Shown: in pieces, positions 2,607 to 40,150 of the stretch
Position numbering within the stretch: position 1 is the stretch's first letter
Layout of the letters: the number at the start of each line of letters is the position of its first letter
Source: an uncultured bacterium
GTDB taxonomy: Bacteria; UBP15; UBA6099; JAJRTR01
NCBI GenBank assembly: GCA_964595945.1
Contig: CAZQSL010000001.1
Coordinates: 36,930-100,929, forward strand
Length of the DNA stretch: 64,000 nt
Reading direction: 5' to 3'
The notes under the pieces: generated by a model
Told to the model about the DNA's origin: nothing
Databases searched by the model: none
Seen by the model: the letters and a program-made list of their open reading frames with translations, nothing else
Program-made: the position numbers and the translations under genes

Positions 2607-4007
2607 TTGGAACCGATGAAGCTCTCACAGATCATCGAAGCAACCCGCGGCACTCTCACAAGAGGCAGCGCCGACGGCATCGTCATCTCCGGCATCCAGA
2701 CCGACAGCCGGCTCGACTGCTCCGGCTCGCTGTTTGTCCCACTTGCGGGGGAGACTTTCGATGGGCACGACTTCATCACACCCATTGCTGCCAAAGGCGC
2801 ACTGGGTTGCGTCGCATCCAGAGATTTCGACACTTCCGCGCTACCCGCAGAATTTTTCGTCATCCGCGTCGCTGATACCCTCGCGGCCCTTCAGGACATC
2901 TCTGGGGCTTACCGCCAGCAGTTCGACTCCGCTGTCATCGCCGTCACGGGCAGTTGCGGCAAAACGACTACCAAAAACATGCTTCGCACGATGTTTTCGG
3001 TCGCGGGAGACACCGTAGCGACTGCCAAAAACGAAAACAACGAAATCGGCGTACCATACACGCTGCTGCGGATCGCCTCCAGCACAAAATACACTGTCGT
3101 GGAAATGGGTATGCGCGCTCTCGGCGAAATCTCACGTCTCGCTCAAATCGCCGCTCCGACTCACGCCGTGATCACCAACGTCGAAAAAACACACATCGGC
3201 CGCCTCGGCTCAGAGGAAAACATCGCCAGGGCCAAGGGCGAACTGATCGAATCTCTCGATTCCTCCGGCACCGCGTTTCTCAATGCCGACAATATATGGA
3301 CATCCGAATTGCGCCGCCGCACCGCCGCCACTGTCATAACTTTCGGCATCGAACAAGGCGACGTGCGCTCGGAAAATGTCAAATTTTCTCTCGACGGCAT
3401 TTCGTTCGATCTGCTGCATCCCTCCGGCCGGATGAGCGTCACCCTGCCGCTGCCGGGCAAGGCGGCTGTATACAACGCGCTTTCCGCTGCCGCCGCGGGC
3501 CTTTCGCTCGGACTTTCTCCCGAAACGATCACCACCGGCCTCGCTGCTCCGATCGGCGAAAGCGGCCGCCTCGTCAAACATGTCTGTGACAACGGTACCG
3601 TCATACTCGACGATACTTACAACTCAAATCCGGCTTCGCTCAGCCTCGCGCTCGAACTCCTCGGCGGCGTAGCCTGGCATGGCCGCAAGGTCGCCGTACT
3701 CGGCGATATGCTCGAACTCGGTGACTTCAGCGAGAGCGAGCATTTCAGAGTCGGCGCTGAATTCGCTGCCGCCAACACCGATCTGCTCGTCACGATGGGC
3801 ACCGAAGCCGCCCACATAGCCGCCGGCGCACGCGGGGCGGCCCCAGCGATGCCGGTCATCTCTTTCGACACTTACGAACTGCTCGCCGATGCTGCGTCCT
3901 CGATTTTCAAATCCGGCGATCTCATTCTTGTCAAAGGTTCGCGCGGCATGAAGATGGAACGAATCGTGAATCTCATCAGCGGCAATCTTACGGGAGGGCG
4001 ATTATGA
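2607..4007 (+). CDS. murF: UDP-N-acetylmuramoyl-tripeptide--D-alanyl-D-alanine ligase
   Basis: Mur ligase P-loop GSCGKTTTK. Position between murE and mraY fits. The start is a TTG at 2607 or an ATG at 2616. Confidence 0.9.
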   Translation: MEPMKLSQIIEATRGTLTRGSADGIVISGIQTDSRLDCSGSLFVPLAGETFDGHDFITPIAAKGALGCVASRDFDTSALPAEFFVIRVADTLAALQDISGAYRQQFDSAVIAVTGSCGKTTTKNMLRTMFSVAGDTVATAKNENNEIGVPYTLLRIASSTKYTVVEMGMRALGEISRLAQIAAPTHAVITNVEKTHIGRLGSEENIARAKGELIESLDSSGTAFLNADNIWTSELRRRTAATVITFGIEQGDVRSENVKFSLDGISFDLLHPSGRMSVTLPLPGKAAVYNALSAAAAGLSLGLSPETITTGLAAPIGESGRLVKHVCDNGTVILDDTYNSNPASLSLALELLGGVAWHGRKVAVLGDMLELGDFSESEHFRVGAEFAAANTDLLVTMGTEAAHIAAGARGAAPAMPVISFDTYELLADAASSIFKSGDLILVKGSRGMKMERIVNLISGNLTGGRL

Positions 4008-4996
4008 GTCTGTTCGGCGATCCGGCGCTCGGCAAAGCCCTCTTGGCGGCAGGCATTTCATTTGCCTCCGGCATGGTGATCATGAAAGCGCTTATCGCGC
4101 TGCTCAACAAGGCCGGCATGCGGCAGATCATCCGCAAGGACGGTCCGCAGGCACATCTGAAAAAGGCGAAGACGCCGACTATGGGCGGTCTCGGTTTTTT
4201 CATCGCCTCCGTGATCGGCATCGCCGCTACCGGCGCGTTTGCGCACTCTACGACACGGCTTGTGATCATTACGGGATTTATTTGCCTGCTGATCGGTTTC
4301 GCTGATGATTTTGCCAAGTTCACGGGCAAGAGCACCGAAGGAGTCAAAGCCCGCTACAAGATTGTGATCGAACTCGCAGTAGCGATACTGCTCGCATATT
4401 TCATGGTCTGGCAAAGTACGCCAGACAAGCCTTACGACCTGATCTGGATGCCGTTCGGACTGAAGGGTATTCATCTTGGCCCGCTGTTTTACCCGTTTGT
4501 GATCGTGGTTTTCATGGGATCGCTAAACGGGGTCAATTTTACCGACGGTGTGGACGGGCTGCTGGGTGGCTGCTTCGTCGCCGTGTCGGCGGCATTCGCG
4601 GCGTTTATCGCGATGTATTCCGACCGCGCTCTGCTTGTGCCGCTAGCCGCAATATGCGGGGCTGTCGGCGCTTTTCTGTGGTACAACTCGCATCCCGCGA
4701 AGGTCTTTATGGGCGACACGGGATCGCTTTTCCTCGGCGGAGTGCTCGCGGCCATTGCAGTCGTTACGCGCACCGAGCTGTTTCTTTTTGTCGCCGGGCT
4801 TGTCTTCGTCGCCGAAGTGCTTTCGGTGATGATACAGGTGACATCGTACAAACTGACGAAAAAACGTGTTTTCCGCATGGCTCCGATACATCATCATTTC
4901 GAGCTTGGCGGCTGGAGCGAGACACAGGTATCAATACGATTTTGGATTGTCTCATGGGCCCTCGGACTCGTGGCTCTGCTGATTTTCGTAGTGTAA
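4004..4996 (+). CDS. mraY: Phospho-N-acetylmuramoyl-pentapeptide transferase
   Basis: Polytopic membrane protein whose ATGA start overlaps the murF stop. It carries the conserved MraY C-terminal motif (PIHHHFEL) and sits in the canonical dcw position. Confidence 0.92.
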   Translation: MSLFGDPALGKALLAAGISFASGMVIMKALIALLNKAGMRQIIRKDGPQAHLKKAKTPTMGGLGFFIASVIGIAATGAFAHSTTRLVIITGFICLLIGFADDFAKFTGKSTEGVKARYKIVIELAVAILLAYFMVWQSTPDKPYDLIWMPFGLKGIHLGPLFYPFVIVVFMGSLNGVNFTDGVDGLLGGCFVAVSAAFAAFIAMYSDRALLVPLAAICGAVGAFLWYNSHPAKVFMGDTGSLFLGGVLAAIAVVTRTELFLFVAGLVFVAEVLSVMIQVTSYKLTKKRVFRMAPIHHHFELGGWSETQVSIRFWIVSWALGLVALLIFVV

Positions 4997-5003
4997 AGAA
5001 CAG

Positions 5004-6410
5004 GTGGAGATGGATATTTACAGACCTCAAAATATAGAAGACGCTGTCGTGGCGGTGATCGGACTCAACGTCACGGGGCTCGCCTGCGCGTCGATTCTGC
5101 CTCATTTCGGAGCGGAAGTTGTGCTGTCGGACACACGGCCACTCGCTGAGATCAGGGATAAAGTCATGAGCCTGATCGACTCGGGTTATTCCTATCTGCC
5201 GATCAGTGAAATCGCCTCATTGTCACCAGATTTTATAATTGTCAGTCCCGGTCTCGACCCGCGATGCCGTTCGCTCGATCCGCTCAGAGATCTCGACGCC
5301 GAATGGGTTTCGGAAATCGAACTCGCGAGTCATATCAGCAGAGGCCGCATATTCGCCATAACCGGTACCAATGGTAAAACCACTGCCACTACTCTCGCCG
5401 GCCAGGTGCTCGGCAAAAAGTTTTCCGACGTCCGCGTTTGCGGCAATATCGGCCGCACTTTCATCGAGTCAGTCATCGACTCCACCGACGATACAGTCTA
5501 TGTCATCGAAGTCAGTAGCTATCAGCTCGAAGGCTGTACTTTCTTCAAGCCAGATGTGGCAGTCGAACTCAATCTCAGCGAAGACCATCTCAAACGTCAC
5601 GGCGATATGGATGGCTATGCGGGAGTCAAGGCAAAGATGGTAGCTACGCTCACCGCAGATGACTATGCGGTACTAAATGCTGATGACAGATATGTTTCTG
5701 CGATGGCGGCGGCCACAGCAGGTCGCGTGCTGGAATTCAGCACCAGTCGTGAAGTGGAACAGGGCGCGTACTACGACGGGAAAATGCTCAGGCTGAAAAT
5801 CGATGGAGTGCCCCATGATATCTGTGCCGCTGACGAACTGCTGATCGAGGGAAGTCACAATATTGCCAACGTGCTCGCCATAGCGGCCGGAGCGGCTGCA
5901 ATGGGTGTCAGCGCCCGTGAGATCGCGGAGACGGCAAAGACATTTCGCGGACTCGAACACCGCATCGAGCCGGTCGCGGAGATAAATGGAGTCAGATTCG
6001 TCAACGACTCGAAAGGCACAAATCCCGATTCGGTCTTTGTGGCTCTCGACGCGTTCCGGGACAAGCCGGTCGTGCTGATAGTTGGCGGCGATGACAAGGG
6101 GTTTGAATACACGGCTCTATATAATATCATCGCGCGGCGCGAAGTGCGTACGATCGTTTTGGGCGAAGGCCTTGTAAGGATGGCGCACGAAATGGAGCGG
6201 CGCGGCGATATTGATTTCAGACGTGTGCCGGATATGAAATCTGCTGTCTGGGCAGGATATGACATGCTCGGCGCCGGCGGCGTTGTGCTGCTTTCGCCCG
6301 GTTCGTCGAGCTTTGACTTGTATAAAAACTTCGAAGAACGCGGAAAACATTTTAAATCGGAGGTGGCGGCGCTTGAAGCAGAAGTCTCAAAAACCCGGTC
6401 AGCCTGTTGA
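5004..6410 (+). CDS. murD: UDP-N-acetylmuramoylalanine--D-glutamate ligase
   Basis: P-loop ITGTNGKTT. The N-terminal Rossmann-like domain is typical of MurD. Position after mraY fits. Confidence 0.9.
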   Translation: MEMDIYRPQNIEDAVVAVIGLNVTGLACASILPHFGAEVVLSDTRPLAEIRDKVMSLIDSGYSYLPISEIASLSPDFIIVSPGLDPRCRSLDPLRDLDAEWVSEIELASHISRGRIFAITGTNGKTTATTLAGQVLGKKFSDVRVCGNIGRTFIESVIDSTDDTVYVIEVSSYQLEGCTFFKPDVAVELNLSEDHLKRHGDMDGYAGVKAKMVATLTADDYAVLNADDRYVSAMAAATAGRVLEFSTSREVEQGAYYDGKMLRLKIDGVPHDICAADELLIEGSHNIANVLAIAAGAAAMGVSAREIAETAKTFRGLEHRIEPVAEINGVRFVNDSKGTNPDSVFVALDAFRDKPVVLIVGGDDKGFEYTALYNIIARREVRTIVLGEGLVRMAHEMERRGDIDFRRVPDMKSAVWAGYDMLGAGGVVLLSPGSSSFDLYKNFEERGKHFKSEVAALEAEVSKTRSAC

Positions 6411-7659
6411 CAGACGCTCCGGCCAGCAACCGCCATCGCCGCCGGCGAAGCAGAGTGCTGCTTTCGCCAATTTCGGCACGCCCGATTATACGTTTCTGAT
6501 GATCGTGATACTCCTGACCTGCGTGGGTCTTGTCATGGTCTTCAGTTCGAGTGGCGTCTTTTCGCTCAATACCCAGTCGGACGCACTGTATTATCTCAAG
6601 CAGGAAGCCAAGTGGGTAGCGATGAGCCTTTTTGCGATGGGCTTTATGATGGTGTTCAGCTACAAGCGTTTCAGGAAGCTGGCCCTGTGGGGGCTTGGCC
6701 TTGCGGTGGCGATGCTGGCGGCAGTGCTTGTGCTGCCGGAGAGTCTCGCGCCCACCGTCAACGGCTCCAACCGCTGGCTGCAGATACCTGGGCTGAGGAT
6801 ACATGTCGGCGAATTCGCCAAGTTGACGATGATTGTGTTTTTCGCCGTTTTTCTTTCAAGCAAACAAAGGGATATCAGGCAGTTGCCCAATCTGTTGACG
6901 ATAGTGGGCATCTATGGCGGCATCGGGGTTTTGCTGCTGATGGAGCCTGATTTCGGGATGACGTTTGTGATCGGTCTCATCCTGGTGGCGATGCTGTGCA
7001 TTGCCGGAGTCAACAGCGGTCTGCTACTTGGCGGCATCGCTGCCGGCGTTGTAGGCGGATGGTTTATCGCCATAGCCGAGCCTTACAGATATAAAAGGCT
7101 CATGGCCTTCCGCGATCCGTTCGCCGATGCGGATGGAGTGGGCTATCAGGTCGCCCAGTCGCTGATCGCGATTGGCAACGGAGGATGGTTCGGCCGCGGA
7201 CTGGGGAAAAGTCTCCAGAAGCTGATGTTTCTGCCTGAGCAACATACGGATTTCATATTCTCGATCATAGCCGAAGAACTCGGCATCCTCGGGGTCATGC
7301 TTGTCGTCGGGCTGTTCATAGCCCTTACGGTACAGGGGTTCAAGATCGCGATGAAATGCGAAGACCCGCTGGGTAAATACCTTGTGTTCGGGATTACGTT
7401 CATGATCTCGGCACAGGCGCTTTTCAACATGGGAGTAGCCACGGCTATGCTGCCGGTCAAGGGGCTGACACTGCCGTTCGTCAGCTTCGGCGGTGCGTCG
7501 CTTCTTCTGACTTACGCGGCTGTCGGCATAGTGCTCAATGTGTCGGCCAACTCAAACAGGGAACGGATGAAAAAGAATGAAATGTCTCCTTCTGGCGGTG
7601 GGGGGAACGGGCGGTCACATATTCCCGGCAATAGCCCTCGGCCGTCACGTAATGGATAA
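6373..7659 (+). CDS. ftsW: SEDS family peptidoglycan glycosyltransferase FtsW
   Basis: Ten-TM SEDS protein between murD and murG. The track ORF begins at 6259, inside murD. I prefer the in-frame TTG at 6373, which gives a basic cytoplasmic N-terminus before TM1. An ATG at 6499 is an alternative. The 3' end overlaps murG by 83 nt. Confidence 0.83.
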   Translation: MKQKSQKPGQPVDRRSGQQPPSPPAKQSAAFANFGTPDYTFLMIVILLTCVGLVMVFSSSGVFSLNTQSDALYYLKQEAKWVAMSLFAMGFMMVFSYKRFRKLALWGLGLAVAMLAAVLVLPESLAPTVNGSNRWLQIPGLRIHVGEFAKLTMIVFFAVFLSSKQRDIRQLPNLLTIVGIYGGIGVLLLMEPDFGMTFVIGLILVAMLCIAGVNSGLLLGGIAAGVVGGWFIAIAEPYRYKRLMAFRDPFADADGVGYQVAQSLIAIGNGGWFGRGLGKSLQKLMFLPEQHTDFIFSIIAEELGILGVMLVVGLFIALTVQGFKIAMKCEDPLGKYLVFGITFMISAQALFNMGVATAMLPVKGLTLPFVSFGGASLLLTYAAVGIVLNVSANSNRERMKKNEMSPSGGGGNGRSHIPGNSPRPSRNG

Positions 7660-8683
7660 AATGCCCGATGTGCGTGTGTGCATCGCCGGCAAACGCGGAG
7701 GACAGGAAGAGCGCGCCGCCGCTCTGTACGGGATCGAGTTTCACCCCGTGAAAGTGGCGAAGGCTCCTGCCCGAAAGCTTTCCGCAGGCACCTTGAAATT
7801 TCCAGCCGAAATTGGGTCTGCCGCAGCGACCGGAGTATCGACGATCAAAAAACTGTCCCCCGGTGTTGTCGTGGGATTCGGCGGCTACGTTTCTTTTCCA
7901 GCCACTGTCGGCGCTGCGCTATGTAAGGTGCCGGTCTATATCCACGAGCAAAACGCATTCGCGGGCAAAGCCAACCGGGTGCTCGCACGATTCGCCCGTG
8001 GTGTATTTATCAGCTACGAGGAGACCAGCGGTGTATTCGGGCAAAAGTCGATACTGACAGGCAATCCGTCGCGTTTCGAAAACGTGCCACTCCCCTCGAA
8101 GGAAGAAGCGCGTGTCAAGCTCGGCCTCGACCCGGTAAAGCGCACTGTGTTCGTTTTCGGCGGCAGCCAGGGCGCCCGCAGCATCAATACGGCAGCAGCC
8201 TCATTTGCCGCTTCGCTCGGTGAGCGGGCTGACATACAGATGCTCCACCTTTCGGGCAAGGCCAATTACGAAGCCGTACACGACGCCTATGCCGGGATCA
8301 CTTCACAGGATGGCATCAGAGTCTCCATCCTCGACTACCTCGATGACATGCTCTCGGCCTACTGCGCCGCCGATGTCATCGTGTGCCGCGCCGGAGCTTC
8401 GACGATCGCCGAAACGTGCTCGATCGGCATACCGTCGATCCTCGTACCGTTTCCCTTCGCTGCCGACGATCACCAGCGTTTCAATGCTCGGGCAGTCGCG
8501 CGCAAGGGCGCTGCGATCATGGTGGACGACACGGAATTCACCGGCGAAAGAATGGCCGCCGAAGTACTCGCTCTGATCGACGACCCGGCAGCCTGCGAAA
8601 GAATGACAAAAGCATCCAGAGACTCCTACACGGCCGGCGCGGCCGCGAAGATGCTGAAAACGATCGAAAGCCTGCTCTTGTGA
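7577..8683 (+). CDS. murG: UDP-GlcNAc:undecaprenyl-PP-MurNAc-pentapeptide GlcNAc transferase
   Basis: N-terminal GGTGGH motif (LLAVGGTGGHIFPA) and a GT28 fold. Follows ftsW. Confidence 0.9.
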   Translation: MKCLLLAVGGTGGHIFPAIALGRHVMDKMPDVRVCIAGKRGGQEERAAALYGIEFHPVKVAKAPARKLSAGTLKFPAEIGSAAATGVSTIKKLSPGVVVGFGGYVSFPATVGAALCKVPVYIHEQNAFAGKANRVLARFARGVFISYEETSGVFGQKSILTGNPSRFENVPLPSKEEARVKLGLDPVKRTVFVFGGSQGARSINTAAASFAASLGERADIQMLHLSGKANYEAVHDAYAGITSQDGIRVSILDYLDDMLSAYCAADVIVCRAGASTIAETCSIGIPSILVPFPFAADDHQRFNARAVARKGAAIMVDDTEFTGERMAAEVLALIDDPAACERMTKASRDSYTAGAAAKMLKTIESLLL

Positions 8684-8702
8684 AATTGATTGCCAAACGG
8701 CA

Positions 8703-9569
8703 ATGGAAATATTGATGATGATGAGTGAAGAAAAAAATGACAACATGCCAATAATTGGCGCATCCCCCGCGCCGGACGCCTCTCCGCGTCCAAAGCAGTC
8801 CGTGGGCACGCCGATGGAGACGACTATGCGCCGCATGAAAAAGCGAAAAGTCCGCGTCTGGCGTGTTGTGCTGCTCGCTTTTCTCGTCATGTGCGGCACT
8901 GTATTCGCTATCATCAACACCGATCCATTCAAAATCCGCACTGTAGAGGTCAGCGGCATCAGACGTGTCAGCGCCGAACAGATATACCGCGACTCTAATA
9001 TCGAAATCGGCGGCAACCTCGTGTGGCTGCGCACCTCGAAAATCAAACGCCGCATCGAACAGCGTCCTCTCGTCACCAGGGCTGTCATCCACAGGATACT
9101 CCCCTCGACTGTCAGCATCATCATCTTCGAGCGCAAGCCCTATGCCTATGTCACTAACGGCAAGGACTATTATCTGATCGACCGCGAGGGCTACGTGCTC
9201 GACCGCGTCGCGGGCATCGGCAACAAACAATTGTTCCGCGTCTACAGCAACAGTGTAAAACCCGCCCAAAGGGGCGAAAAACTCGTGTTTCCCCACTCGC
9301 CGGTATTCGACGATTTCGTGATCATACTCGACAAATACATGGCCGGCCGCTACCAGACCGTACGCTTTGACCGCCACGGCATCAAGCTCACGCTCCGCGA
9401 TGGCACCTACGTACTGCTCGGCAAGGGCAGCGACCTCGAAAAGAAAATTATGCTCGTACCGGTGATCACAGAAAAACTCAATGCCGCGCATGAGGAGTAC
9501 GAAGGCCTGAACCTTGAATACCTGTCAGTGCCGTCATTCATCGAAAAGGAGAAAACGGGCGCACAATGA
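8703..9569 (+). CDS. ftsQ: Cell division protein FtsQ/DivIB (POTRA domain)
   Basis: Single N-terminal TM segment (RVVLLAFLVMCGTVFAI) followed by a POTRA-like beta domain. Lies directly upstream of ftsA in the dcw cluster. Start codon choice is uncertain (8703 or 8715). Confidence 0.7.
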   Translation: MEILMMMSEEKNDNMPIIGASPAPDASPRPKQSVGTPMETTMRRMKKRKVRVWRVVLLAFLVMCGTVFAIINTDPFKIRTVEVSGIRRVSAEQIYRDSNIEIGGNLVWLRTSKIKRRIEQRPLVTRAVIHRILPSTVSIIIFERKPYAYVTNGKDYYLIDREGYVLDRVAGIGNKQLFRVYSNSVKPAQRGEKLVFPHSPVFDDFVIILDKYMAGRYQTVRFDRHGIKLTLRDGTYVLLGKGSDLEKKIMLVPVITEKLNAAHEEYEGLNLEYLSVPSFIEKEKTGAQ

Positions 9570-10156
9570 AACGCTTGGCCGCACTGATAATCTTTTCGAT
9601 CGTGATGGGTATCTGCATAAACCACATCGCGCGCGGCAACCTGCCCGTAGCAAGGCTGTCGGACTCACGCTACTTCTACGATGCACGTACCGAAAACGGT
9701 GAATCCTCCGCACGCATCGCGCGACTCGCGGGCATGACTCCCGTACACGGACAGGGCATCCGGCTCATCGTCGACGACGCCACACGCGACGGCTCCAATT
9801 CAAATGTGCCGGTGGAAAGACTCATCGTACACGAACGCGATCTGATGCTGATACGCAACGAACTTTTCGCCGCTGGCGCGACCGCCATGTCAATCAACGG
9901 CGAACGCATGGTCGCCACCACAGAAATCAGGTGCGTCGGTCCCGCCATAAGGATCAATACCCGCAACACCGCCCCCCCATATTATGTAGACGCGGTGGGC
10001 GACCCGAAAGTGCTCAAGAAAGCCGTCCTCGTCATGGGCGGCCTGTTCGACATCCTGACGATGGAGCGGATTTCCGTGAAAATCGAAGAGAAAGACAATC
10101 TCGTGATCCCGTCACTCATCTCAAGCGTGACGGTGCGCCCGGAGGCTCAGCAATGA
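9566..10156 (+). CDS. DUF881 family protein (YlxW/YlxX-like division-cluster protein)
   Basis: N-terminal TM segment followed by a roughly 170-aa domain. ATGA-coupled to ftsQ. In Bacillus-type clusters this position between divIB and ftsA is occupied by DUF881 proteins. The family assignment is from memory of that architecture, not a search. Confidence 0.55.
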   Translation: MKRLAALIIFSIVMGICINHIARGNLPVARLSDSRYFYDARTENGESSARIARLAGMTPVHGQGIRLIVDDATRDGSNSNVPVERLIVHERDLMLIRNELFAAGATAMSINGERMVATTEIRCVGPAIRINTRNTAPPYYVDAVGDPKVLKKAVLVMGGLFDILTMERISVKIEEKDNLVIPSLISSVTVRPEAQQ

Positions 10157-10485
10157 TCCTGTGTCTCGTCGGACTCGTGATCGGATATTTCATCGGCATG
10201 ACCATGGAAGCGACTTCGCTCGCACGCTTCGGCACGGAAAACGTCATGGTCGTATTCATCGCTATCGCCGATCTGACAGCTCTGATTCTGATGAGAAAAA
10301 ACACACCTATCCTCAGGGGCCTCGCCATCCGTTGTGCGATCTGCGCGGCGGCAATATGGATGGAAGCAAAAACGGATTTTCCCGTAGTTCTTTTATTGAC
10401 CGTACTGTTCACAGCGTCGTTATTCAAGACGCTCACAACAGACGCAATCAGGCAATCGCGGCTGGTGTCAGATGAAAAAGGCTGA
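10153..10485 (+). CDS. Small membrane protein (sbp/DUF1290-like)
   Basis: 110-aa protein with two or three TM segments. ATGA-coupled to the preceding gene and overlaps ftsA by 14 nt. The track lists it only as the tail of a 184-aa ORF starting at 9931. Confidence 0.45.
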   Translation: MILCLVGLVIGYFIGMTMEATSLARFGTENVMVVFIAIADLTALILMRKNTPILRGLAIRCAICAAAIWMEAKTDFPVVLLLTVLFTASLFKTLTTDAIRQSRLVSDEKG

Positions 10486-11719
10486 CGAAAACAGAATAGT
10501 GGCCGGCATAGACATCGGCACATCAAAAGTCTGCGCCCTCGTCGCCCGCGTGGACGAAGCCGGCAAGATCAGTGTCGCCGGCGCTGGCGTCGCGCCCAAT
10601 GACGGCATGAAAAAAGGCCTCGTCGTCGACATCGACAAGGTTTCACACGCGGTCTTTACAGCAGTAGATCAGGCCGAAAAAGCCGCTGGATGCGTCGCCG
10701 AAAACGTCTATGTGACCGTATCCGGCAATCACGTTACTACCAATGCCGGCAGAGGCTCGGCCCCCGTTGCCAATCCTGAACGGGGCGTCGCTCCCGACGA
10801 TGTCCGGCGCGCGCTCGACGCTTCGAAATATCTCTTGATCCCGCCAGACAAAAAGATCATTGGCGTGATCGAAAACGACTTCACTCTCGATGGCCACGGC
10901 GGAGTGACCGACCCGGTAGGCATGGCTGGCTCACACCTTGAGGTCAACGTCCAGATAGTCACCGGAGCCACGGCTTCCGTGCAAAATCTCCTGCGAAGCA
11001 TCGACAAGGTCGGCATAGAGGTCGATGCCATGATGCCCGCAGTGCTCGCCTCAGGCGAAGCCGTACTCAACAGCGACGAAAAGAAAGTCGGAATACTGCT
11101 GATCGATTTCGGCGCTGGCACGACGTCGCTCGCTATGTTTCGCAATGGTTTCATGACCGATGCGAGGGTCATCCCCATCGGCAGTTCACATATAGACAAC
11201 GACATCGCTGTAGTGCTCGGCACATCGCCGGCAGATGCCGAAAAACTAAAAATCGAATACGGCAGCGTATCACCGAAACTCCGCGATGAAAGTACTCCCG
11301 TCGAAGTCACCCTCATCGGACGCGACGAAAAAAACCAGATACCGCGAGGAATGCTCTGTCAGGTGATACAGCCACGTATCGCCGAACTCCTCGACATCAT
11401 CGTCAAGGAACTTCGCGACAGCTTCAGCAACGCCACACCGCCCGCCGGAATTGTCATCACTGGCGGCGGCGCTCACCTGCCCGGCATGATCGAGGCAGTC
11501 GAACAAAAACTCGGCTATCACGTACGACTCGGCAAAACGCTCTACGCGGGCGAAAACGCCGCTCGCCTCGGCGATCCGCGATTTACCGCTGCAGCTGGCC
11601 TCCTGAGATGCGCGGCAGCGAGAGTAGGGAAAATGCGCTATGAGCAAGAATCACAACCGTCCCCCTTCAAAGGAGCCTGGCTCACACTGGTTGCCTTTTT
11701 TAGAGGACTTTTTAAATGA
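10472..11719 (+). CDS. ftsA: Cell division protein FtsA
   Basis: Actin-fold N-terminus [17 protein letters not shown] and an FtsA-specific domain layout. Immediately upstream of ftsZ. Confidence 0.9.
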
Positions 11720-13028
11720 AGTGCCGCCCCCCGACGGCTGGCACGTGCAAGGTAAAAAATCCGACTCCGGCAGACAGCCGGGAGGAACCGATACCCACGG
11801 AGGTGCACAGGTGGAATTCGAACCAAAAGCTGAGAAATTCGCGAAGATAAAAGTCGCTGGTGTCGGCGGTGGCGGCTGCAACGCGGTCAACCGCATGATC
11901 GATGTTGGCGTCGGCGGTGTTGACTTCATCGTCGTCAACACAGACGCTCAGGTGCTCATTGACAGCAAGGCGGCACACAAGCTCCAGATCGGCGGAAAAC
12001 TCACTCGCGGCCTTGGCGCCGGCGCCGACCCCGAAGTCGGCAAACAGGCTGCCGAAGCGAGCGTAAGTGAAATCGAAACATCGCTCGAAGGATCCGACAT
12101 GGTATTCGTCACCTCCGGCATGGGCGGCGGCACCGGTACAGGGGCATCTCCCATAGTTGCGCGCATCGCACGCAAACTCGGCGCTCTCACTGTAGGTGTC
12201 GTCACAAAGCCCTTCGCCTTCGAGGGTAAACGCCGCATGGCTTTCGCCGAACGCGGCATCGAAGCTCTCGCCGCCGAGGTCGACACCCTCATCGTCATCC
12301 CCAATGACAAGCTGCTCGACATCATCAGTCCTGGCACATCGCTCGTCGAAGCTTTCAGGAGCGCCGACGACGTGCTCCGCCAGGGCGTGCAGGGCATTTC
12401 CGATCTCATTACAAAACCCGGTCTTATCAACCTCGACTATGCCGATGTCAAAACCATTATGAAAGACGCCGGCTCCGCTCTTGTCGGCATCGGCATGGCT
12501 TCCGGCGATGACCGCGCCAATCTCGCCGCGCAGCAGGCCATCTCATGTCCGCTGCTCGAAACTTCCATCGAAGGCGCCCGCGGCATTCTTATGAATATCA
12601 CCGGTGGCTCAGACATGAGTCTTCTCGAAGTCCACACCATCGCCCAGGTCATCAACACCGCCGCCTCCGAAGACGCCAATATCATCTTCGGCGCCGTCGT
12701 AGACGAAAAACTCAAGGACGAAATCAGCGTCACTGTCATCGCCACCGGCTTCGGCTCGGCCTCCTATTCGACAAAAAAGGTTTTCGCCCCTACAGTCGTC
12801 GCGCACAAACCCCAGGAGATCGTGTTTTCCAAACCCCTCCGCGACAGAATCCCCGAACCACCGCAACCGAAAACCCCTGTCGACGAAGTTGACACCGTCC
12901 GCGACGAGCCGGCACCCGCGCCGGCCGCTGCTCCCGAGCCCAAGTCCGAACCTCTCCCGCACACCCCTTCCGGCGACGAGCTCGATATCCCTTCATTCCT
13001 TCGCAACCGCAAGAAGAAAGACGACTGA
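11640..13028 (+). CDS. ftsZ: Cell division GTPase FtsZ
   Basis: Tubulin signature GGGTGTG and the [15 protein letters not shown] motif. Conserved C-terminal peptide [11 protein letters not shown]. The ATG at 11640 has an AGGGAA ribosome-binding site (RBS), gives a roughly 65-aa N-terminal extension and overlaps ftsA by 80 nt. Confidence 0.92.
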
Positions 13029-13044
13029 TCACTGGGCGGCCCCG

Positions 13045-14673
13045 ATGCGCGAGTCTCATCTCTACGAAAACACATCGGGCGCCTCCCCGGAAGCAGCGGC
13101 TCTCAAAGTAGCCATCTGCTTCCCAGGCAACTACAGGGTGGGCATGGCAAACCTCGGATTTCTCTGGGTGCGCCATCTCGCCAATTCCATGCAGGAGGTT
13201 CGCTGCGACCGGTTCTTTATGACTGACCGGCAACTTAATAAAAAAACGGCCCTCTTTTCGCCCGATTCCCACATGACACTCGCCGACTACGATGTCGTGG
13301 CGTTTGCCCTGCCCTACGAACCCGGCTATCTGAATGTCCCGGCAATGCTCGACGCTGGCGGCATCCCGGCGCTGGCGTCCACACGTTCGCGTCTGCCACT
13401 CGTGGTCGCAGGCGGCATGGCAGTCAGCGCCAATCCCGAGCCCATGTCCGCAATCCTCGATGCCGTCCTCATCGGCGAGGCCGAGGGAGCGTGGCAGATG
13501 CTGCTCGAAAAGTGCATGGACTACATCACAGGCGGCGCCAGAAAAGCACGTCGCGGACGGCCTTCCGAATCTTTTTTTCGCGCGCTCGCGTCCGAAGGCC
13601 CGTTCTATGTCCCGTCGCTGTATGACTACGCATTCGACGGAAAAGGTATTACTGAAATCACCGACATAGATGGTGGGCCGCCACTCGTGATCGAGTCCAA
13701 TTATGCCACACGCATCGACGCCGCACATTCGCCCCTGATCACCGACGGATCGGCGTTCCCGGGCATGTTCCTCGCAGAGCTCACACGTGGGTGCCCCCAC
13801 AGGTGCCGCTTCTGCCTCGCGGGCCACACGGGCGGAAAATTCCGCATCGCCGAAGGCGCCGCTGACGCAGTCGCACTTTCAAGGGGAAAGGCAAACGGCA
13901 TCGGACTCATCGGCACCGCGTTCACGCGATCGCCCGACACACGCGCAATATGTGCTTTCGCCGTCGAAAACGGTATGCGCGTTTCGTTTTCATCTGTGCG
14001 TCTCGATGCCGGCACGACCGCCCTCATGCGTGAATTTTCCCAAGCGGTCTCGATGGATACTGTCACGATCGCTCCTGAGACGGCTACCGACCGCCTCGGC
14101 GCCATTGTCGGTAAAAACATTTTCGCCGAGATGGAATCATTCGCCGACGCCGCCAGAGAAGCTGGCGTCAAACGGGTGCGCATGTACTACCTGATCGGAG
14201 TGCCGGGAGAAACGGACGGCGATGTGGCTGCCATCGCTGCCCACGCAAAGTCGTTCGGCGTGAAATCCGGTTGCGAGGTCATGGTGAGTGCTACTCCGCT
14301 GATCCCAAAGCCGATGACGCCGATGCAATGGTTCGCTTTCGCTGACGTTGGCGACCTGAAAAGAAAGCGAAAACTGCTAAAGAACACTGCTCGTAAAGAA
14401 GGGCTCGAAGTGAAAGTCGAGGGACTCGCCGAATCATTCACGCAAGCGGTGCTCGCCCGCGGCGACCGTCGCCTTTCGCCCCTGATCGCGGCTTGCGCGG
14501 ACAGTCGGCACGAACCTTTTGAAAATATGATCGCAGCGGCAGGACTCGACGCCTCGTACTGGACACGCGCTCTGCCGCTTGAGGCGATGCTGCCGTGGAG
14601 CACCGTAAGATATGGCCTCGCTGCTGAAGAACTTGAAAAAATATACATGGATACACTCGCAGCCGTGAAATGA
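13045..14673 (+). CDS. Radical SAM protein with B12-binding-like N-terminal domain (TIGR03960-like uncharacterized rSAM family)
   Basis: CxxxCxxC motif (CPHRCRFC). N-terminal VAICFPGNYRVGMANLGFLWV is typical of the B12-binding-like domain of this family. The track ORF starts at 12889, inside ftsZ. The ATG at 13045 lies just past the ftsZ stop. Confidence 0.72.
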   Translation: MRESHLYENTSGASPEAAALKVAICFPGNYRVGMANLGFLWVRHLANSMQEVRCDRFFMTDRQLNKKTALFSPDSHMTLADYDVVAFALPYEPGYLNVPAMLDAGGIPALASTRSRLPLVVAGGMAVSANPEPMSAILDAVLIGEAEGAWQMLLEKCMDYITGGARKARRGRPSESFFRALASEGPFYVPSLYDYAFDGKGITEITDIDGGPPLVIESNYATRIDAAHSPLITDGSAFPGMFLAELTRGCPHRCRFCLAGHTGGKFRIAEGAADAVALSRGKANGIGLIGTAFTRSPDTRAICAFAVENGMRVSFSSVRLDAGTTALMREFSQAVSMDTVTIAPETATDRLGAIVGKNIFAEMESFADAAREAGVKRVRMYYLIGVPGETDGDVAAIAAHAKSFGVKSGCEVMVSATPLIPKPMTPMQWFAFADVGDLKRKRKLLKNTARKEGLEVKVEGLAESFTQAVLARGDRRLSPLIAACADSRHEPFENMIAAAGLDASYWTRALPLEAMLPWSTVRYGLAAEELEKIYMDTLAAVK

Positions 14674-15377
14674 CTGCTGTGGAGATGATGAAAATGAAAA
14701 ATATAATTGCTGGAAACATCAACAGAATACTCGAAGACGTAGCTGATACTGCCGCGCGCTGCGGCAGGAGTGCCGGCGAGATCACTCTCGTGGCAGTGAC
14801 AAAAATGCGCAGCGAGGATGAAGTCATCGCCGTTATGGATGCAGGTATTACAAACATCGGCGAGAACCGCGTGAAAGATGCGTCTGAAAAAGCGCATGTC
14901 ATCCGCGAAGGTGTGACGTTCAGACTGATCGGGCACCTCCAGACCAACAAGGCGGCGCTGGCGGTCAGGATTTTTGACAAGATAGATTCGGTGGACACAG
15001 TGCGGCTCGCGGAAATCATTTCGGAGGAAGCTCTGAAAAAGGGCCGCGGCCCCCTTGAAATACTTGTGCAGGTGAATAGCTCGGGCGAGGAAAGCAAGTC
15101 GGGATTTGAGCCGCAGGAAACCGCAGATGCAGTGGCGGCAATCGCCCTGCTGCCCGGACTGTCAGTAAAGGGACTTATGACAATCGGCCCGCTTACATGG
15201 GACGAAATTGAAATCAGAAAGTCATTTCAGATGATGAATAGGCTTTTCGACGATATAAAAACCGGCCAACCCGGTTTCGACACCCTTTCGATGGGGATGT
15301 CCGGAGACTATCGGATAGCCATCGAAGAAGGCGCGACCATGATAAGGGTCGGCAGCGCGATTTTCGAAAGGAGGTGA
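14670..15377 (+). CDS. yggS: YggS/YlmE family pyridoxal-phosphate homeostasis protein
   Basis: Alanine-racemase-N-like TIM barrel with the conserved LVAVTK lysine region. ATGA-coupled to the upstream gene. Classic partner of sepF. Confidence 0.85.
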   Translation: MTAVEMMKMKNIIAGNINRILEDVADTAARCGRSAGEITLVAVTKMRSEDEVIAVMDAGITNIGENRVKDASEKAHVIREGVTFRLIGHLQTNKAALAVRIFDKIDSVDTVRLAEIISEEALKKGRGPLEILVQVNSSGEESKSGFEPQETADAVAAIALLPGLSVKGLMTIGPLTWDEIEIRKSFQMMNRLFDDIKTGQPGFDTLSMGMSGDYRIAIEEGATMIRVGSAIFERR

Positions 15378-15499
15378 CGATTTTCGCACAGTGGATTTCC
15401 ACACCAGCATCATGGCGGCCTTAAGGCCGCATGACCCCTGCATTTGAGAGAATAATACTACAAGTCTCCCATGAGAGACACGAAAACGGAGGTAACAAA

Positions 15500-15964
15500 G
15501 TGTTTGAAGCAATTTCCCAGAACGCGCTCGTAAAAAAGGTGCTTAATTTCATCACGTTCCAGGAAGATGACGAACAGGAGCAGGGATACCAGCCAGAAGC
15601 GCCGCAGAGCCAGCACACCGCCGCACCCCGCAAGACCGGCAAAGTCCTGCCCTTCACCAACAGCAATCCTATGGCAGTCGCTGTCAACGACCCGAAATCG
15701 ATGGAAGACGCCCGCGAAGTCGCGGACAATCTCCGCAGCAATATGGTCGTGCTGATGAACATCTCCAAGATGGAAAAGGACATGGCGAAAGAAATCCTGT
15801 TCTTCCTCAGCGGCGTGGTGTACGCACTCAATGGCGACTCGAAAAAAATCGGCGACGGTGTTTTTCTCTTCACGCCTCACGGCATCCCGATCCGTGACTT
15901 CGAAGCAGTTCAGGCCGAAGCGAAACCCGCACAGAAAAGCAGTCTTTTCATCGAAGAGCTGTGA
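15500..15964 (+). CDS. sepF: Cell division protein SepF (YlmF)
   Basis: C-terminal SepF domain (VVLMNISKMEKDMAKEILFFLSGVVYALNGDSKKIGDGVFLFTP). A GTG start at 15500 is preceded by a GGAGGT RBS at 15488-15493. The track ORF starts further upstream at 15431. Confidence 0.8.
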   Translation: MFEAISQNALVKKVLNFITFQEDDEQEQGYQPEAPQSQHTAAPRKTGKVLPFTNSNPMAVAVNDPKSMEDAREVADNLRSNMVVLMNISKMEKDMAKEILFFLSGVVYALNGDSKKIGDGVFLFTPHGIPIRDFEAVQAEAKPAQKSSLFIEEL

Positions 15965-16089
15965 CACGGCGGCAAATCTCGTGATGAGTCGCGGGGTGAT
16001 CGACTGATTGCAATGAAATACAGATGACCTGCGCAGACGGTATGCGGTGACGCTCCGTGGGCGTGTGTGTTTGCGACTGGAAGGAACTT

Positions 16090-16902
16090 ATGAAAATCGG
16101 ATTTTTCGGTGTAGGGAAAATGGGAGAGATCATACTTGGCGGATTGATCCGCGAGGGCATGTGCGTTGCGACCGATGTCATGATATTTGACGCCGTGATG
16201 GACAAGGCCGATGATGTGTCTGAGGCACTCGGTGTTGTCGCTGCTTCCGATCCGGCTGATGTGGCGCGCGAATGCGATATGATATTCCTTTGCGTCAAGC
16301 CCGATCAATTCGCGAGCCTTGCGAAATCCATCAGGAATGTTCTGAACGTCCGCGATGATAAACCCTGTTTCGTCAGCATCATGGCCGGTGTGAAAACAGA
16401 CCGCATCATGGATGCACTCGGGTGGGATGACCTCGCTGTCATCCGCGTGATGCCCAATGTCGCATGCACCGTAGGCAGGGGCATGGCAGGCATCGCCGCA
16501 AGTGACGAAGCGGAGGACGAAACGAACGAATTCGTCTTTGATCTCTTTGAAAAACTCGGCGGCGCCGTATGGGTCAAGGAAAAACAGATGGATGCGGTGA
16601 CGGCTGTCAGCGGTAGCGGGCCGGCCTATGTGTTTATGTTTATCGAAGCTCTCACCGATGCGGGAGTGATGATCGGCCTCGACCGCGCTACTTCACAAAA
16701 ACTTGCCGTCCGCACCCTTGCGGGCGCTACCGAAATGGTCAACCAGGAGCTTGGCGACACTCTCACTCTTCGAGCTCAGGTGTCTTCGCCCGGCGGCACA
16801 ACTGCTGCCGCTACGACAGCCCTCGAAAAATTCGGGTTCAGAAATGCCGTCATCGAAGCCGTCACGGCTGCCTGGAAAAAATCAATCGAACTTGGTTCGT
16901 AA
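16090..16902 (+). CDS. proC: Pyrroline-5-carboxylate reductase
   Basis: N-terminal Rossmann motif IGFFGVGKMGEIILGG and the C-terminal P5CR dimerisation domain (SSPGGTTAAATTALE). The ATG at 16090 has a GGAAGG RBS. Confidence 0.85.
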   Translation: MKIGFFGVGKMGEIILGGLIREGMCVATDVMIFDAVMDKADDVSEALGVVAASDPADVARECDMIFLCVKPDQFASLAKSIRNVLNVRDDKPCFVSIMAGVKTDRIMDALGWDDLAVIRVMPNVACTVGRGMAGIAASDEAEDETNEFVFDLFEKLGGAVWVKEKQMDAVTAVSGSGPAYVFMFIEALTDAGVMIGLDRATSQKLAVRTLAGATEMVNQELGDTLTLRAQVSSPGGTTAAATTALEKFGFRNAVIEAVTAAWKKSIELGS

Positions 16903-16921
16903 GAAAAAGGAAGCACTGCAA

Positions 16922-19351: not shown

Positions 19352-19472
19352 ACTTTTCCGACAAACGCTCCGGACTCTCCGTCAGATTCCGGCTGGCAGA
19401 CAGGCAGTACCCAAACCAGTTCTCATCTTTACGGGCGATAGCCCGCAAAGTTGCGATCAGTATACCCCCTGA

Positions 19473-19499
19473 AGCTCCCCACGCGGGAGCTTTTTTTTT
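19473..19499 (+). terminator. Rho-independent terminator downstream of ftsK
   Basis: GC hairpin agctccc-cacgc-gggagc followed by a 9-nt T run. Confidence 0.6.
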
Positions 19500-19552
19500 G
19501 CAGGCAGGCATGATACCAGCAGGATAGTTCGGAATGATAAAAACTGCTACAG

Positions 19553-19752
19553 AATATACTGAATATCAATAGAAATTCCCCATCCATTGTCATTGAAGTC
19601 TCCCGGGAAAAAACCTTGCTATAGTGAAAACATGTTTGTATTATCCGTATTAATCCGTGTCAGAAAGTCTTTATTGTTTTCCGATGCTACGCAAGATCAT
19701 CTCGACAGACCATAACCATACACAGGGGAATTCGATTGATATTTCGTATAAT
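19553..19752 (+). repeat. Composite dispersed repeat, copy 1 (28-nt block 19553-19580, 100-nt block 19652-19752)
   Basis: The 28-nt block aatatactgaatatcaatagaaattccc and the 100-nt block ending in tataat recur at 27531-27557 and 27652-27753 with about 85-90% identity. The spacers between blocks are unrelated. Confidence 0.7.
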
Positions 19753-19827
19753 CGTCACGGACATCTTTTCGAAAAGCAGGAATTTCCGGCAGCTGATGCT
19801 CGAGCAGCGTCATTACGCCCCCGCTCA

Positions 19828-20145
19828 TCACTTGCGATCTGATGGCATAGTGGGGGGCTGCTGATGGTGGATGCGGTTGACATCTTTGTGGTGAAAACAG
19901 TGGTAGCAGAGCACGCGCGAGACTGCCGGGCGGTTTTGCGCGGTGACAGAATACGAAATCTTCATACACGATCGGCAGCAGATACGGTGGCACTCCTCGC
20001 AACGGGAGTAGAGGTCGATAGCAAACGATATGCCGCAGATATCGCAGGTCGCGGGAGCGATGCCTTCTCTGATCATGTTGACCTCATTTCCGATACCGGT
20101 ATTCCGGCAAAAATGATAGTGTAGCGCAATCATGTCTGATGTCAA
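19828..20145 (-). CDS. Cysteine-rich putative double zinc-ribbon protein (hypothetical)
   Basis: Four CxxC-like pairs (CDIC, CEEC, CCRSC, CYHC). Transcribed divergently from bamA. No homology search was possible. Confidence 0.35.
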   Translation of the reverse strand: MTSDMIALHYHFCRNTGIGNEVNMIREGIAPATCDICGISFAIDLYSRCEECHRICCRSCMKISYSVTAQNRPAVSRVLCYHCFHHKDVNRIHHQQPPTMPSDRK

Positions 20146-20361
20146 TGATCAAGGTGCCGCGAGGAAATCCGGCCGCGCGAAAAACTTTATTCATCCCAGC
20201 GTCATCATCCACCCGCGACTGTCCAATCTCATATCAGTATCGCCAGGTAAGCGTAGATACAGGCCGTTAGGGAGATGTTTTGAAATGCCATTGATTAAAT
20301 GTAGAACTAATTCCAATAATATATTAGAATGTGTCTGTTTATACGCTATTGGAGGAGATAG

Positions 20362-22140: not shown

Positions 22141-22164
22141 GCCGTGATCTCTGGAGGTGACTTA

Positions 22165-23487: not shown

Positions 23488-23519
23488 TCCCCGCCAATAT
23501 CGAAAGGAGCAATAAAGTA

Positions 23520-24071
23520 ATGAACAGAATGTGGAAAACCCTGATACCGGGTATCGCAATCATCCTCACCGTAGCAGCAGGCATCATCTACCTCCAATCC
23601 GGCAAAGCTGTCGCCGGCAGCCATGTAGTCGGCTATGTCGACTCCGACTCCATCCTCGAAGCCTACGCCCCGGCAATCGCAGTGCACAACGAGCTCGGCC
23701 AGCTCCAGAAAAAAAATGAAGACGCCCTCCGCGAAAAAATCACCGCAAAATTCGGCACCGGCGACCCCTCCCTCCTGCCCAAGGAATCCCAGATGGAAAT
23801 ACAGAAAATGATCGAAGAAGCCGAAGCTTCATACCAGTCCCAGATGGAAGACCTCCGCAACCGCAAATGGACGCCCATCGTCGAACAGGTTCATTCCGCA
23901 ATGGAAAAGGTCGCCGCTCAGGAAGGCACCGATGTCGTACTTGACCGCTCAGCCGTACTCGCTGGCGGTGTCGACCTTACACAAAATGTCATCGACTACC
24001 TCGGCAAACAACAACCCGGAGCCGCCCCCACTGCAGCGCCGGCCCAGCCTGCCGCACCTCCAAAAAAATGA
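23520..24071 (+). CDS. skp: Periplasmic chaperone Skp/OmpH family
   Basis: AAGGAG RBS. A signal peptide followed by a roughly 150-aa coiled-coil protein (VVGYVDSDSILEAYAPAIAVHNELGQLQKKNEDALREK). Positioned between bamA and lpxD. Confidence 0.7.
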   Translation: MNRMWKTLIPGIAIILTVAAGIIYLQSGKAVAGSHVVGYVDSDSILEAYAPAIAVHNELGQLQKKNEDALREKITAKFGTGDPSLLPKESQMEIQKMIEEAEASYQSQMEDLRNRKWTPIVEQVHSAMEKVAAQEGTDVVLDRSAVLAGGVDLTQNVIDYLGKQQPGAAPTAAPAQPAAPPKK

Positions 24072-26147: not shown

Positions 26148-26168
26148 CCTCACACCGGAGATATCCTC

Positions 26169-38128: not shown

Positions 38129-38295
38129 TCTCCCCCAAAAAATCATTTGCCACCGAACCAATACTGATTATAATAAAATTGCGTGATGAAAAGCACACCT
38201 ATTTTTTTTAAAAATTATATGGCGAAAGATGTGTTGGTGGTATAATTGAATTGAGCATATACATTCTGACGCCAACATGAGATAAGGTGGTCAAT

Positions 38296-39393: not shown

Positions 39394-39423
39394 TAGATCA
39401 TACCGAAGTAACCGGAATTTATA

Positions 39424-40094: not shown

Positions 40095-40150
40095 TGGGGT
40101 CTCCAAACCTCTACCGAAAAACTTTATATGATATACTCCAGCCATTTTTT

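Follow-up and report, generated by a model that had tools for sequence, protein, structure and literature searches.

A division and cell-wall operon with a DUF881 gene and a remote Sbp-like gene beside outer-membrane genes in a sparsely sampled bacterial lineage

The division and cell-wall operon and the neighbouring outer-membrane genes

The DNA analysed here, referred to below as the window, is a stretch of 64,000 nucleotides from an uncultured bacterium (contig CAZQSL010000001.1, positions 36,930 to 100,929). It contains a division and cell-wall (dcw) operon in which a DUF881 gene and a small membrane gene lie between ftsQ and ftsA, and, further downstream, a unit of outer-membrane genes. 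Open reading frames (ORFs) were taken from a six-frame map, their identities were assigned by Pfam and NCBIfam scans, and structure matches were obtained by sequence search of the Protein Data Bank (PDB). On the + strand, an uninterrupted chain was observed, consisting of ftsI' (truncated)-murE-murF-mraY-murD-ftsW-murG-ftsQ-DUF881-small membrane gene-ftsA-ftsZ-radical SAM-ylmE-sepF-proC-ftsK. The mur and fts genes were collinear on one strand and ended in ftsQ-ftsA-ftsZ, and the cluster matched the conserved dcw core order (PMC8871954), minus murC, murB, and ddl.

The ftsQ/divIB gene (8703-9569) encoded a POTRA_1 domain (E = 3.6e-16) and an FtsQ_DivIB_C domain (E = 4.4e-6). The DUF881 gene (9566-10156), located directly downstream, matched PF05949 (E = 2.5e-37). 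The small membrane gene (10153-10485; 110 amino acids (aa)) remained below the Pfam threshold and exhibited a remote similarity to DUF1290/Sbp-like proteins. The ftsA gene (10472-11719) encoded FtsA and SHS2_FTSA domains in a product of 415 aa, identical to database entry P0003. Starts and stops overlapped by 4 nucleotides (nt) between ftsQ and the DUF881 gene, by 4 nt between the latter and the small gene, and by 14 nt between the small gene and ftsA, which is a signature of translational coupling. Long antisense ORFs within ftsQ, ftsA, and ftsZ were considered as alternative genes and rejected as shadow ORFs, with no family match.

The start of ftsQ was located 20 nt after murG (7577-8683; Glyco_transf_28 and Glyco_tran_28_C domains; 46-51% identity to the murG of relatives), with no murC, murB, or ddl in between. 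Moreover, no MurC, MurB, or Ddl domains were found among the scanned ORFs of at least 280 aa across the window. An earlier interpretation of this DNA, made from its letters only and called here the sequence-only reading, had described murG as directly followed by ftsQ without these genes, as was indeed observed. In the Firmicute loci that we fetched, murC or murC-murB-murA occupied the place between murG and ftsQ, and in Bacillus subtilis this place is occupied by murB (PMC6827917). A murG gene directly adjoining ftsQ is peculiar to the window lineage and is not a Firmicute trait. The cluster did not correspond to the Gracilicutes type either (murG-murC-(murB)-ddl-ftsQ, with FtsA as the sole FtsZ anchor), as murC, murB, and ddl were not in the window and SepF was present.

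The gene order of the window recurred in at least six relatives (L002, L005, L006, L007, L008, L009/L010, and L013) at 40-55% protein identity. It was identical from the penicillin-binding protein (PBP) gene to ftsK, including the DUF881 gene (also annotated as PF05949), an unannotated gene of 101-106 codons, and the radical SAM gene. Overlaps similar to those linking ftsQ, the DUF881 gene, the small gene, and ftsA were also present in L005, L009, and L013. Because order and overlaps were kept at such divergence, the arrangement is not due to chance. The sole break in this fixed order was observed in L013, where two small PDDEXK_3 genes (3562-3968) lay between ftsA and ftsZ.

Downstream of ftsA, the ftsZ gene (11811-13028, with an inferred GTG start) encoded Tubulin and FtsZ_C domains, with 2VAM as its best PDB match (429 bits). 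The GTG at 11811 is likely to be the true start, in agreement with a GGAGG located 7 nt upstream and with the length of FtsZ in relatives. The ftsZ frame was open from 11640, that is 57 codons before the GTG, and overlapped the end of ftsA, so that a first-ATG call yields a falsely long FtsZ of 462 aa. The next gene was a B12-binding-type radical SAM gene (ORF 12889-14673; Radical_SAM_N2 and Radical_SAM domains; TIGR03960 at 228 bits, below its cut-off of 462), whose real start is probably near the ftsZ stop, at about 13030. Orthologues, 39-43% identical, were found directly after ftsZ in every relative, and a radical SAM gene of this kind was also observed after ftsZ in an unrelated 2-Mb contig (coordinates outside the window: L002, 12453-14096; L005, 5970-7610; L009, 12821-14476; L019, 8722-10467).

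This gene was followed by ylmE (14670-15377; YggS/PLP-binding family, Ala_racemase_N domain; 51-55% identity in relatives) and, adjoining it, by sepF (15431-15964). The SepF domain clearly exceeded its threshold (PF04472, E = 1.5e-23, 83.2 bits versus a cut-off of 27) and the protein matched PDB 3ZIH (59 bits). The sequence-only reading had announced ylmE-sepF later in the cluster: the two genes do adjoin each other downstream of ftsZ, although the radical SAM gene intervenes and they are followed by proC-ftsK rather than by ylmG-ylmH-divIVA. In all relatives, sepF was likewise followed by proC-ftsK, whereas L011 and L018, two Firmicute loci, carried ylmG-ylmH-divIVA instead.

The remaining genes of the operon were readily assigned. 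At the window start, the truncated 3' part of a class B PBP gene (5-1066) encoded an ftsI-like transpeptidase (PF00905, E = 4.6e-78); at this position, relatives carried PBP_dimer and Transpeptidase domains. It was followed by murE (1102-2604; three Mur ligase domains; same place in L002 and L009), murF (2607-4007; Mur_ligase_M and Mur_ligase_C), mraY (4004-4996; Glycos_transf_4; PDB MraY structures 5JNQ at 205 bits and 8G01 at 198 bits), and murD (5004-6410; MurD-like_N, Mur_ligase_M, and Mur_ligase_C). The ftsW gene, of the SEDS family (ORF 6259-7659; FTSW_RODA_SPOVE, E = 1e-93), probably starts later than its ORF, as the domain begins at residue 79. At the other end, proC (16057-16902; P5CR_dimer and F420_oxidored) preceded ftsK (ORF 16703-19351; FtsK_4TM, FtsK_alpha, FtsK_SpoIIIE, and FtsK_gamma), whose true start is probably downstream of the proC stop. 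Just 3' of ftsK, a hairpin of 9 pairs (19471-19493) followed by a T run (to 19503) was the top terminator-like site on the + strand of the first 20 kb, based on stem length and G-C pairs. This hairpin likely marks the end of the division transcription unit, which we presume to be expressed.

About 1 kb past ftsK, after poorly coding DNA, a second + strand unit was observed, which was minimal in gene content. It contained bamA (20362-22140; Omp85, E = 4.2e-40, with three POTRA matches; 288 bits with TIGR03303, slightly short of its cut-off of 297), skp, encoding an OmpH-like chaperone (23460-24071; PF03938, E = 9.1e-16), and lpxD (ORF 25041-26147; NF002060 at 357 bits versus a cut-off of 207; TIGR01853 at 324 bits versus a cut-off of 242; enzyme match from residue 34). 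An Omp85 protein with POTRA domains, an OmpH chaperone, and an LpxD equivalog above cut-off are the genes expected of a lipopolysaccharide (LPS) diderm. With BamA, Skp, and LpxD all encoded, it is almost certain that the cell is surrounded by an outer membrane containing lipid A. The domain matches thereby confirmed the bamA-skp-lpxD unit (20362-26147) from which a diderm cell had previously been deduced, with the correction that two unannotatable ORFs are interleaved.

The first of these ORFs (22144-23487), located between bamA and skp, began 4 nt past the bamA stop and is predicted to encode a secreted protein of 447 aa with a signal-peptide-like N-terminus. Its C-terminal third appeared strand-rich by eye, and no Pfam, NCBIfam, or PDB match was obtained. 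This protein may be specific to the lineage and either reside in the outer membrane or associate with Bam; an OmpM-like tether is another conceivable role, with no SLH domain or family match to back it. The second ORF (24068-25153), between skp and lpxD, would encode a protein of 361 aa that has a hydrophobic stretch near its N-terminus and an extended region rich in Ser, Ala, and Gln, again with no Pfam, NCBIfam, or PDB match. No tamB was present upstream of bamA (19494-20361), and lpxD was followed by an EamA transporter gene, not by fabZ-lpxA-lpxB (26148-27176).

In the rest of the window (38287-43157, 49704-52880, and 60848-63927), we identified genes for a dockerin protein, a PKD/fn3/FGE-sulfatase protein, a GH38 alpha-mannosidase, and an FeFe hydrogenase with a NuoF-like subunit. 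The dockerin, FGE-sulfatase, GH38, and FeFe hydrogenase genes suggest an anaerobic, glycan-degrading, and hydrogen-producing lifestyle. GC content fell to 0.47-0.49 at 38-44 kb.

The DUF881 gene and the small membrane gene

The DUF881 product scored 128.4 bits against PF05949 (cut-off of 25) and covered profile positions 6-141 of 146. The DUF881-like gene that had been proposed between ftsQ and ftsA, with a profile search as the suggested check, was therefore recovered as such. The protein exhibited a hydrophobic N-terminus (MKRLAALIIFSIVMGICI), corresponding to an N-terminal membrane anchor. Over 130 aa, it shared 42% identity with the DUF881 protein of the sporulating Firmicute locus L012, and it matched PDB 3GMG, the Rv1825 protein of Mycobacterium tuberculosis (E = 2.9e-6, about 75 residues covered). 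The predicted product is a UPF0749, YlxW/YlxX-type membrane-anchored protein. The genes for YlxW and YlxX also come after ftsQ in C. difficile, where both proteins are found at midcell (bioRxiv 10.1101/2025.06.04.657922).

The small protein was mildly basic (isoelectric point (pI) of 8.6, with most family members ranging from 8.6 to 10.1), and its AlphaFold 2 model consisted of four helices (pLDDT of 72). Size (110 aa, within the about 100-125 aa of Sbp proteins), hydrophobicity, basic character, and position between DUF881 and ftsA were those of an Sbp gene. Moreover, in L012 and L014, two loci of sporulating Firmicutes, genuine DUF1290 genes occupied the identical slot (ftsQ-DUF881-DUF1290-ftsA). 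The sequence-only reading had called this gene sbp-like: its small size, its membrane character, and its position before ftsA were all confirmed, while the label itself depends on remote similarity and position.

A single-sequence word-index search with the small protein retrieved only the protein itself, and a family profile, built from six and then thirteen orthologues, retrieved only members of its own lineage, both by word-index search and by an exhaustive HMMER pass on 1.84 billion representatives. This pass yielded 13 matches, 12 of which were proteins of 101-110 aa. In the same pass, eight stretches of P0143, a protein of 923 aa, matched the profile (E = 1.4e-5); P0143 probably is a membrane protein with repeats, and the similarity is likely to be spurious or very remote. 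Overall, the family comprised 21 clusters, with identity down to about 17%, and conserved positions (G7, G11, G15, D40, P77, and S89) were observed; the 21 members had in common a Gx3Gx3G start, an invariant Asp in helix 2, a TGxP turn, and an SIF motif.

Several comparisons linked this family to DUF1290. Among 24,736 Pfam families, DUF1290 was the sole family matched by more than one member (3 of the 21, best E = 0.0053, sub-threshold). When the family hidden Markov model (HMM) was run against 1,727 ORF segments, the DUF1290 protein of L012, which itself scores 120.5 bits on PF06947, ranked first with 15.8 bits (E = 9e-4), versus 5.6 bits (E = 1.4) for the runner-up. In addition, an hhalign comparison of the two families gave a score of 26.8 (P = 3.8e-4) over 93 collinear columns from end to end, above all 300 column shuffles (mean of 10.6, maximum of 19.4) and above the reversed control (14.9). 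In this alignment, the Gx3Gx3G and LxxxD motifs coincided with the same motifs of DUF1290.

The small ORF might instead be unrelated to Sbp/DUF1290, being a lineage-specific membrane protein or a non-gene in the same slot. Several results speak for this alternative and weigh against an Sbp-like identity. The DUF1290 search that had been suggested for 10153-10485 failed, with no PF06947 match to the window protein at E up to 10 (gathering threshold of 24.4 bits) and no NCBIfam match. In the exhaustive pass, no DUF1290 protein was reached at E = 0.001 or better. The hhalign probability was 36%, with a DUF1290 profile of only two sequences, and spurious low-level similarity arises easily among hydrophobic helical proteins. 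However, length, position, and motifs are kept across the 21 clusters, as expected of a real gene, and DUF1290 alone was matched by several members. The ranking of the L012 protein and the end-to-end alignment with invariant motifs in register also count against unrelatedness, which we regard as unlikely. The small protein is thus probably a very divergent Sbp relative, lying outside the curated Pfam definition of the family. It would define a small, previously unrecognised Sbp/DUF1290 branch that current Pfam models miss.

By analogy with characterised systems, MurE, MurF, MraY, MurD, and MurG would produce lipid II, which FtsW and the class B PBP would polymerise into septal peptidoglycan, with FtsQ as the divisome scaffold. 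FtsA and SepF would both attach FtsZ to the membrane, and FtsK would ensure chromosome clearance. Judging from YlxW and YlxX, which are found at midcell in C. difficile, the DUF881 and Sbp-like proteins, encoded by translationally coupled genes, may form a divisome-associated membrane module. The bamA, skp, and lpxD genes, in a unit of their own about 1 kb beyond the operon, would serve to build the outer membrane.

Lineage affinity and origin of the gene combination

To place the window genome, we compared its FtsA with 5.8 billion database clusters. The closest relatives were twelve sequences at 45-51% identity, after which identity did not exceed 41%. The best outside matches were of the sporulating-Firmicute type and the Halanaerobiales type (36-41%), followed by Proteobacterial, Bacteroidales, and Acidobacteriota sequences (35-37%). 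In a neighbour-joining tree (120 sequences, 200 bootstraps), the window lineage was monophyletic in 200 replicates out of 200, and its sister was, or included, Firmicute-type sequences in about 150. The sister was of the Halanaerobiales type in 71 replicates out of 200, of the sporulating-Firmicute type in about 46, and other in the remainder. Two relatives (HOO57533.1 and MFA6451587.1) are labelled just '[bacterium]' at NCBI, with no phylum assigned. No rRNA or tRNA was found in the window by Rfam, nor were ribosomal-protein or RNA polymerase markers. On exact look-up, the window proteins searched formed singleton clusters. A deep, sparsely sampled lineage is supported for the window genome.

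PDB scores, used as a crude indicator of phylum affinity, did not all point the same way. FtsZ was closest to B. subtilis (429 bits) and Staphylococcus aureus (about 417 bits), followed by M. tuberculosis (393 bits), and then by Escherichia coli and Pseudomonas (about 335-345 bits). SepF scored 59 bits against B. subtilis and 23 bits against Corynebacterium. Given that the scores were mixed, no placement is claimed from them. It is supported that the division genes carry markers concentrated in Terrabacteria, namely SepF, a DUF881 protein of the YlxW/YlxX type, and, at the place known from Bacillus, a remote relative of Sbp/DUF1290.

Altogether, the locus is likely to be the vertically inherited dcw operon of an anaerobic two-membrane bacterium, from a deep lineage with a Terrabacteria-type division gene set. 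The best reading of the genes is a diderm Terrabacteria-like lineage, a placement that we infer from the division markers together with the outer-membrane unit. The operon is normal and intact; its combination of Gram-positive-type division genes and outer-membrane genes is useful for evolutionary comparison and is not surprising.

Several observations count against this reading. No single FtsA sister group exceeded 36% bootstrap, so that the phylogeny proposed by the sequence-only reading, which we ran for FtsA, leans towards Firmicute-type sequences with no strong support for any one placement. Against PDB, FtsA scored 228 bits with gammaproteobacterial structures and 89 bits with S. aureus, and MraY was non-discriminating (205 versus 198 bits). 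When the genomes of GTDB species were scanned with FtsA, the sole return was an unrelated Lachnospiraceae FtsA-like locus. No OmpM/SLH, TamB, other lpx, lpt, or Pal genes were seen among the scanned ORFs in the window, so that an envelope of the Terrabacterial type is at most presumed. Finally, the loci of relatives cover the division operon and end short of the outer-membrane genes, so that the two units are seen together in the window only.

This last point would also suit a chimeric contig, in which a Gram-positive dcw cluster had been joined to Gram-negative outer-membrane genes, or a Gracilicutes organism that had gained sepF, the DUF881 gene, and the small gene horizontally. The interval between ftsK and bamA is just 1 kb long and poorly coding, and the scores of FtsA with gammaproteobacterial structures are in line with such an origin. 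Composition argues otherwise: GC content was uniform across the junction between the division and outer-membrane parts, and 4-mer usage in the two parts was correlated at r = 0.93, compared with 0.91-0.97 for other pairs within the window and 0.77-0.84 for relatives. Based on composition, an assembly chimera was rejected. As for horizontal gain, the DUF881 gene, the small gene, sepF, and ylmE are embedded among, and translationally coupled with, core genes, and occupy the same place in every relative. They also diverge from their Firmicute homologues as FtsA and FtsZ do, which fits vertical descent. Chimerism or transfer is therefore highly improbable.

More consideration is due to the possibility that the genome belongs to the Firmicutes (Bacillota) proper, as a further diderm lineage beside Negativicutes, Halanaerobiales, and Limnochordia, with a Firmicute dcw cluster from which murC, murB, and ddl were relocated. 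The DUF881 and Sbp-like module is in the Bacillus position (PMC6827917), the DUF881 domain shares 42% of its residues with its counterpart in a sporulating Firmicute, the best structure matches of FtsZ come from Bacillus and Staphylococcus, and the commonest FtsA sisters are of the Halanaerobiales type (71 of 200) and the sporulating-Firmicute type. However, the nearest Firmicute FtsA was just 38-39% identical, barely above the 35-36% of Proteobacteria, and the submitters of the related genomes gave no phylum. Around bamA, the TamB/BamA/Skp/OmpM/LPS locus of diderm Firmicutes (PMC5007114) was absent, as were, in the window, the ylmG-ylmH-divIVA and spoIIGA-sigE-sigG genes of Firmicute loci. 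Moreover, DUF881 also occurs in Actinobacteria (Rv1825), so that the module is not Firmicute-specific. We consider membership of the Firmicutes proper to be improbable. The sequence-only reading had offered diderm Firmicutes or a deep Terrabacteria-like lineage: the second option, a Terrabacteria-like diderm, is retained here as the best reading, while the locus known from diderm Firmicutes was missing around bamA.

Within the Terrabacteria-like reading, a more specific and rather doubtful proposal is that the lineage stands at the base of, or is sister to, the Firmicutes and has retained both the outer membrane and a YlxW/Sbp divisome module. If so, the YlxW/Sbp module would predate the losses of the outer membrane, the lineage would offer a further, independent diderm outgroup to studies of how diderms became monoderms, and the Sbp-like protein would be the most divergent known branch of DUF1290. 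Outer-membrane loss in Gram-positives is reconstructed from the few lineages in which an outer membrane occurs together with cell biology of the Gram-positive type, and each added lineage of this kind, deep ones above all, sharpens the reconstruction. Interest in the locus would be greater if a genome phylogeny placed it at the Firmicutes base.

Comparison with known systems

The closest likeness was to the dcw cluster of B. subtilis (PMC6827917) and of the sporulating Firmicute loci L012 and L014, which share with the window the order ftsQ/divIB-DUF881-small hydrophobic basic protein-ftsA-ftsZ, the presence of both FtsA and SepF, and ylmE-sepF downstream. The window differs in having one DUF881 gene instead of two, a small protein about 15 residues shorter than Firmicute DUF1290 and under the Pfam threshold, no murB, murC, or murA before ftsQ, and a radical SAM gene after ftsZ. 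After sepF, it carries proC-ftsK and not the ylmG-ylmH-divIVA of Firmicute loci, and the spoIIGA-sigE-sigG genes of sporulators are lacking. Unlike the B. subtilis system, it also encodes BamA, Skp, and LpxD. The arrangement between ftsQ and ftsA, with ylmE-sepF later on, had been described as characteristic of Bacillus and Clostridia, and the DUF881/Sbp-like slot was indeed shared with L012 and L014.

Diderm Firmicutes, which include Limnochordia alongside Negativicutes and Halanaerobiales (PMC5007114, bioRxiv 10.1101/2021.05.31.446380), resemble the window in having outer-membrane and lipid A genes beside a Firmicute-like divisome, with BamA near Skp. In Negativicutes and Halanaerobiales, these genes form a large locus with TamB, BamA, Skp, OmpM (SLH and porin), and LPS genes (PMC5007114); no such locus was found within the 64-kb window, where bamA has no preceding tamB and neither SLH/OmpM nor lpxC-fabZ-lpxA-lpxB is nearby. 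The Halanaerobiales-type loci L011 and L018 carry murC before ftsQ and have no DUF881 or DUF1290 gene, unlike the window, and their FtsA is only 36-39% identical to that of the window. Because the TamB/OmpM/LPS locus is missing beside bamA, L011 and L018 differ, and the Firmicute follow-on genes are absent, membership of the known diderm Firmicutes is not established.

In the dcw cluster of E. coli (murG-murC-ddlB-ftsQ-ftsA-ftsZ), the collinear core murE-murF-mraY-murD-ftsW-murG ... ftsQ-ftsA-ftsZ is the same (PMC8871954). The window differs from it by the absence of murC and ddl and by the presence of the DUF881 gene, the Sbp-like gene, sepF, and ylmE, and its FtsZ scores are markedly higher with structures from Firmicutes than with those from Proteobacteria. 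The adjacency of bamA, skp, and lpxD is presumably also found in E. coli. Rv1825 of M. tuberculosis (UPF0749, PDB 3GMG) shares the DUF881 domain with the window over the residues covered. We take Rv1823-Rv1824-Rv1825 to be a DUF881-DUF1290-DUF881 trio, located, as we assume, outside the dcw cluster, which would make the pairing an old module. The ylmE-sepF-proC order is, we believe, also the arrangement around pipY in cyanobacteria.

At a broader scale, FtsA and SepF occur together in Synergistetes, Caldiserica, Coprothermobacterota, Margulisbacteria, Actinobacteria, Eremiobacterota, Firmicutes, Armatimonadetes, Abditibacteriota, and Fusobacteria, whereas in Gracilicutes, except Fusobacteria, FtsA occurs alone (PMC8178401). 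There is ample documentation of diderm Terrabacteria, several candidate phyla among them, with an envelope type in which the OmpM tether is present and Pal is absent (bioRxiv 10.1101/2021.05.31.446380). Synergistetes, Armatimonadetes, Eremiobacterota, Abditibacteriota, Margulisbacteria, and Fusobacteria thus resemble the window in combining FtsA and SepF in a cell with an outer membrane (PMC8178401), although the relatives of the window are not assigned at NCBI to any of these phyla. The coincidence of features that had been presented as unusual is therefore less so than claimed, and, as such phyla are already documented, the combination is what one would anticipate in a diderm lineage of the Terrabacteria and is of a kind already known. 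What is new is a previously unrecognised, highly divergent Sbp-like subfamily. Beyond this branch and the diderm setting of the pair, the cluster is an ordinary, well-understood operon. Nevertheless, a DUF881 gene and a remote Sbp relative lying between ftsQ and ftsA beside BamA, Skp, and LpxD indicate that this pair, known from Bacillus, is not tied to a single-membrane envelope.

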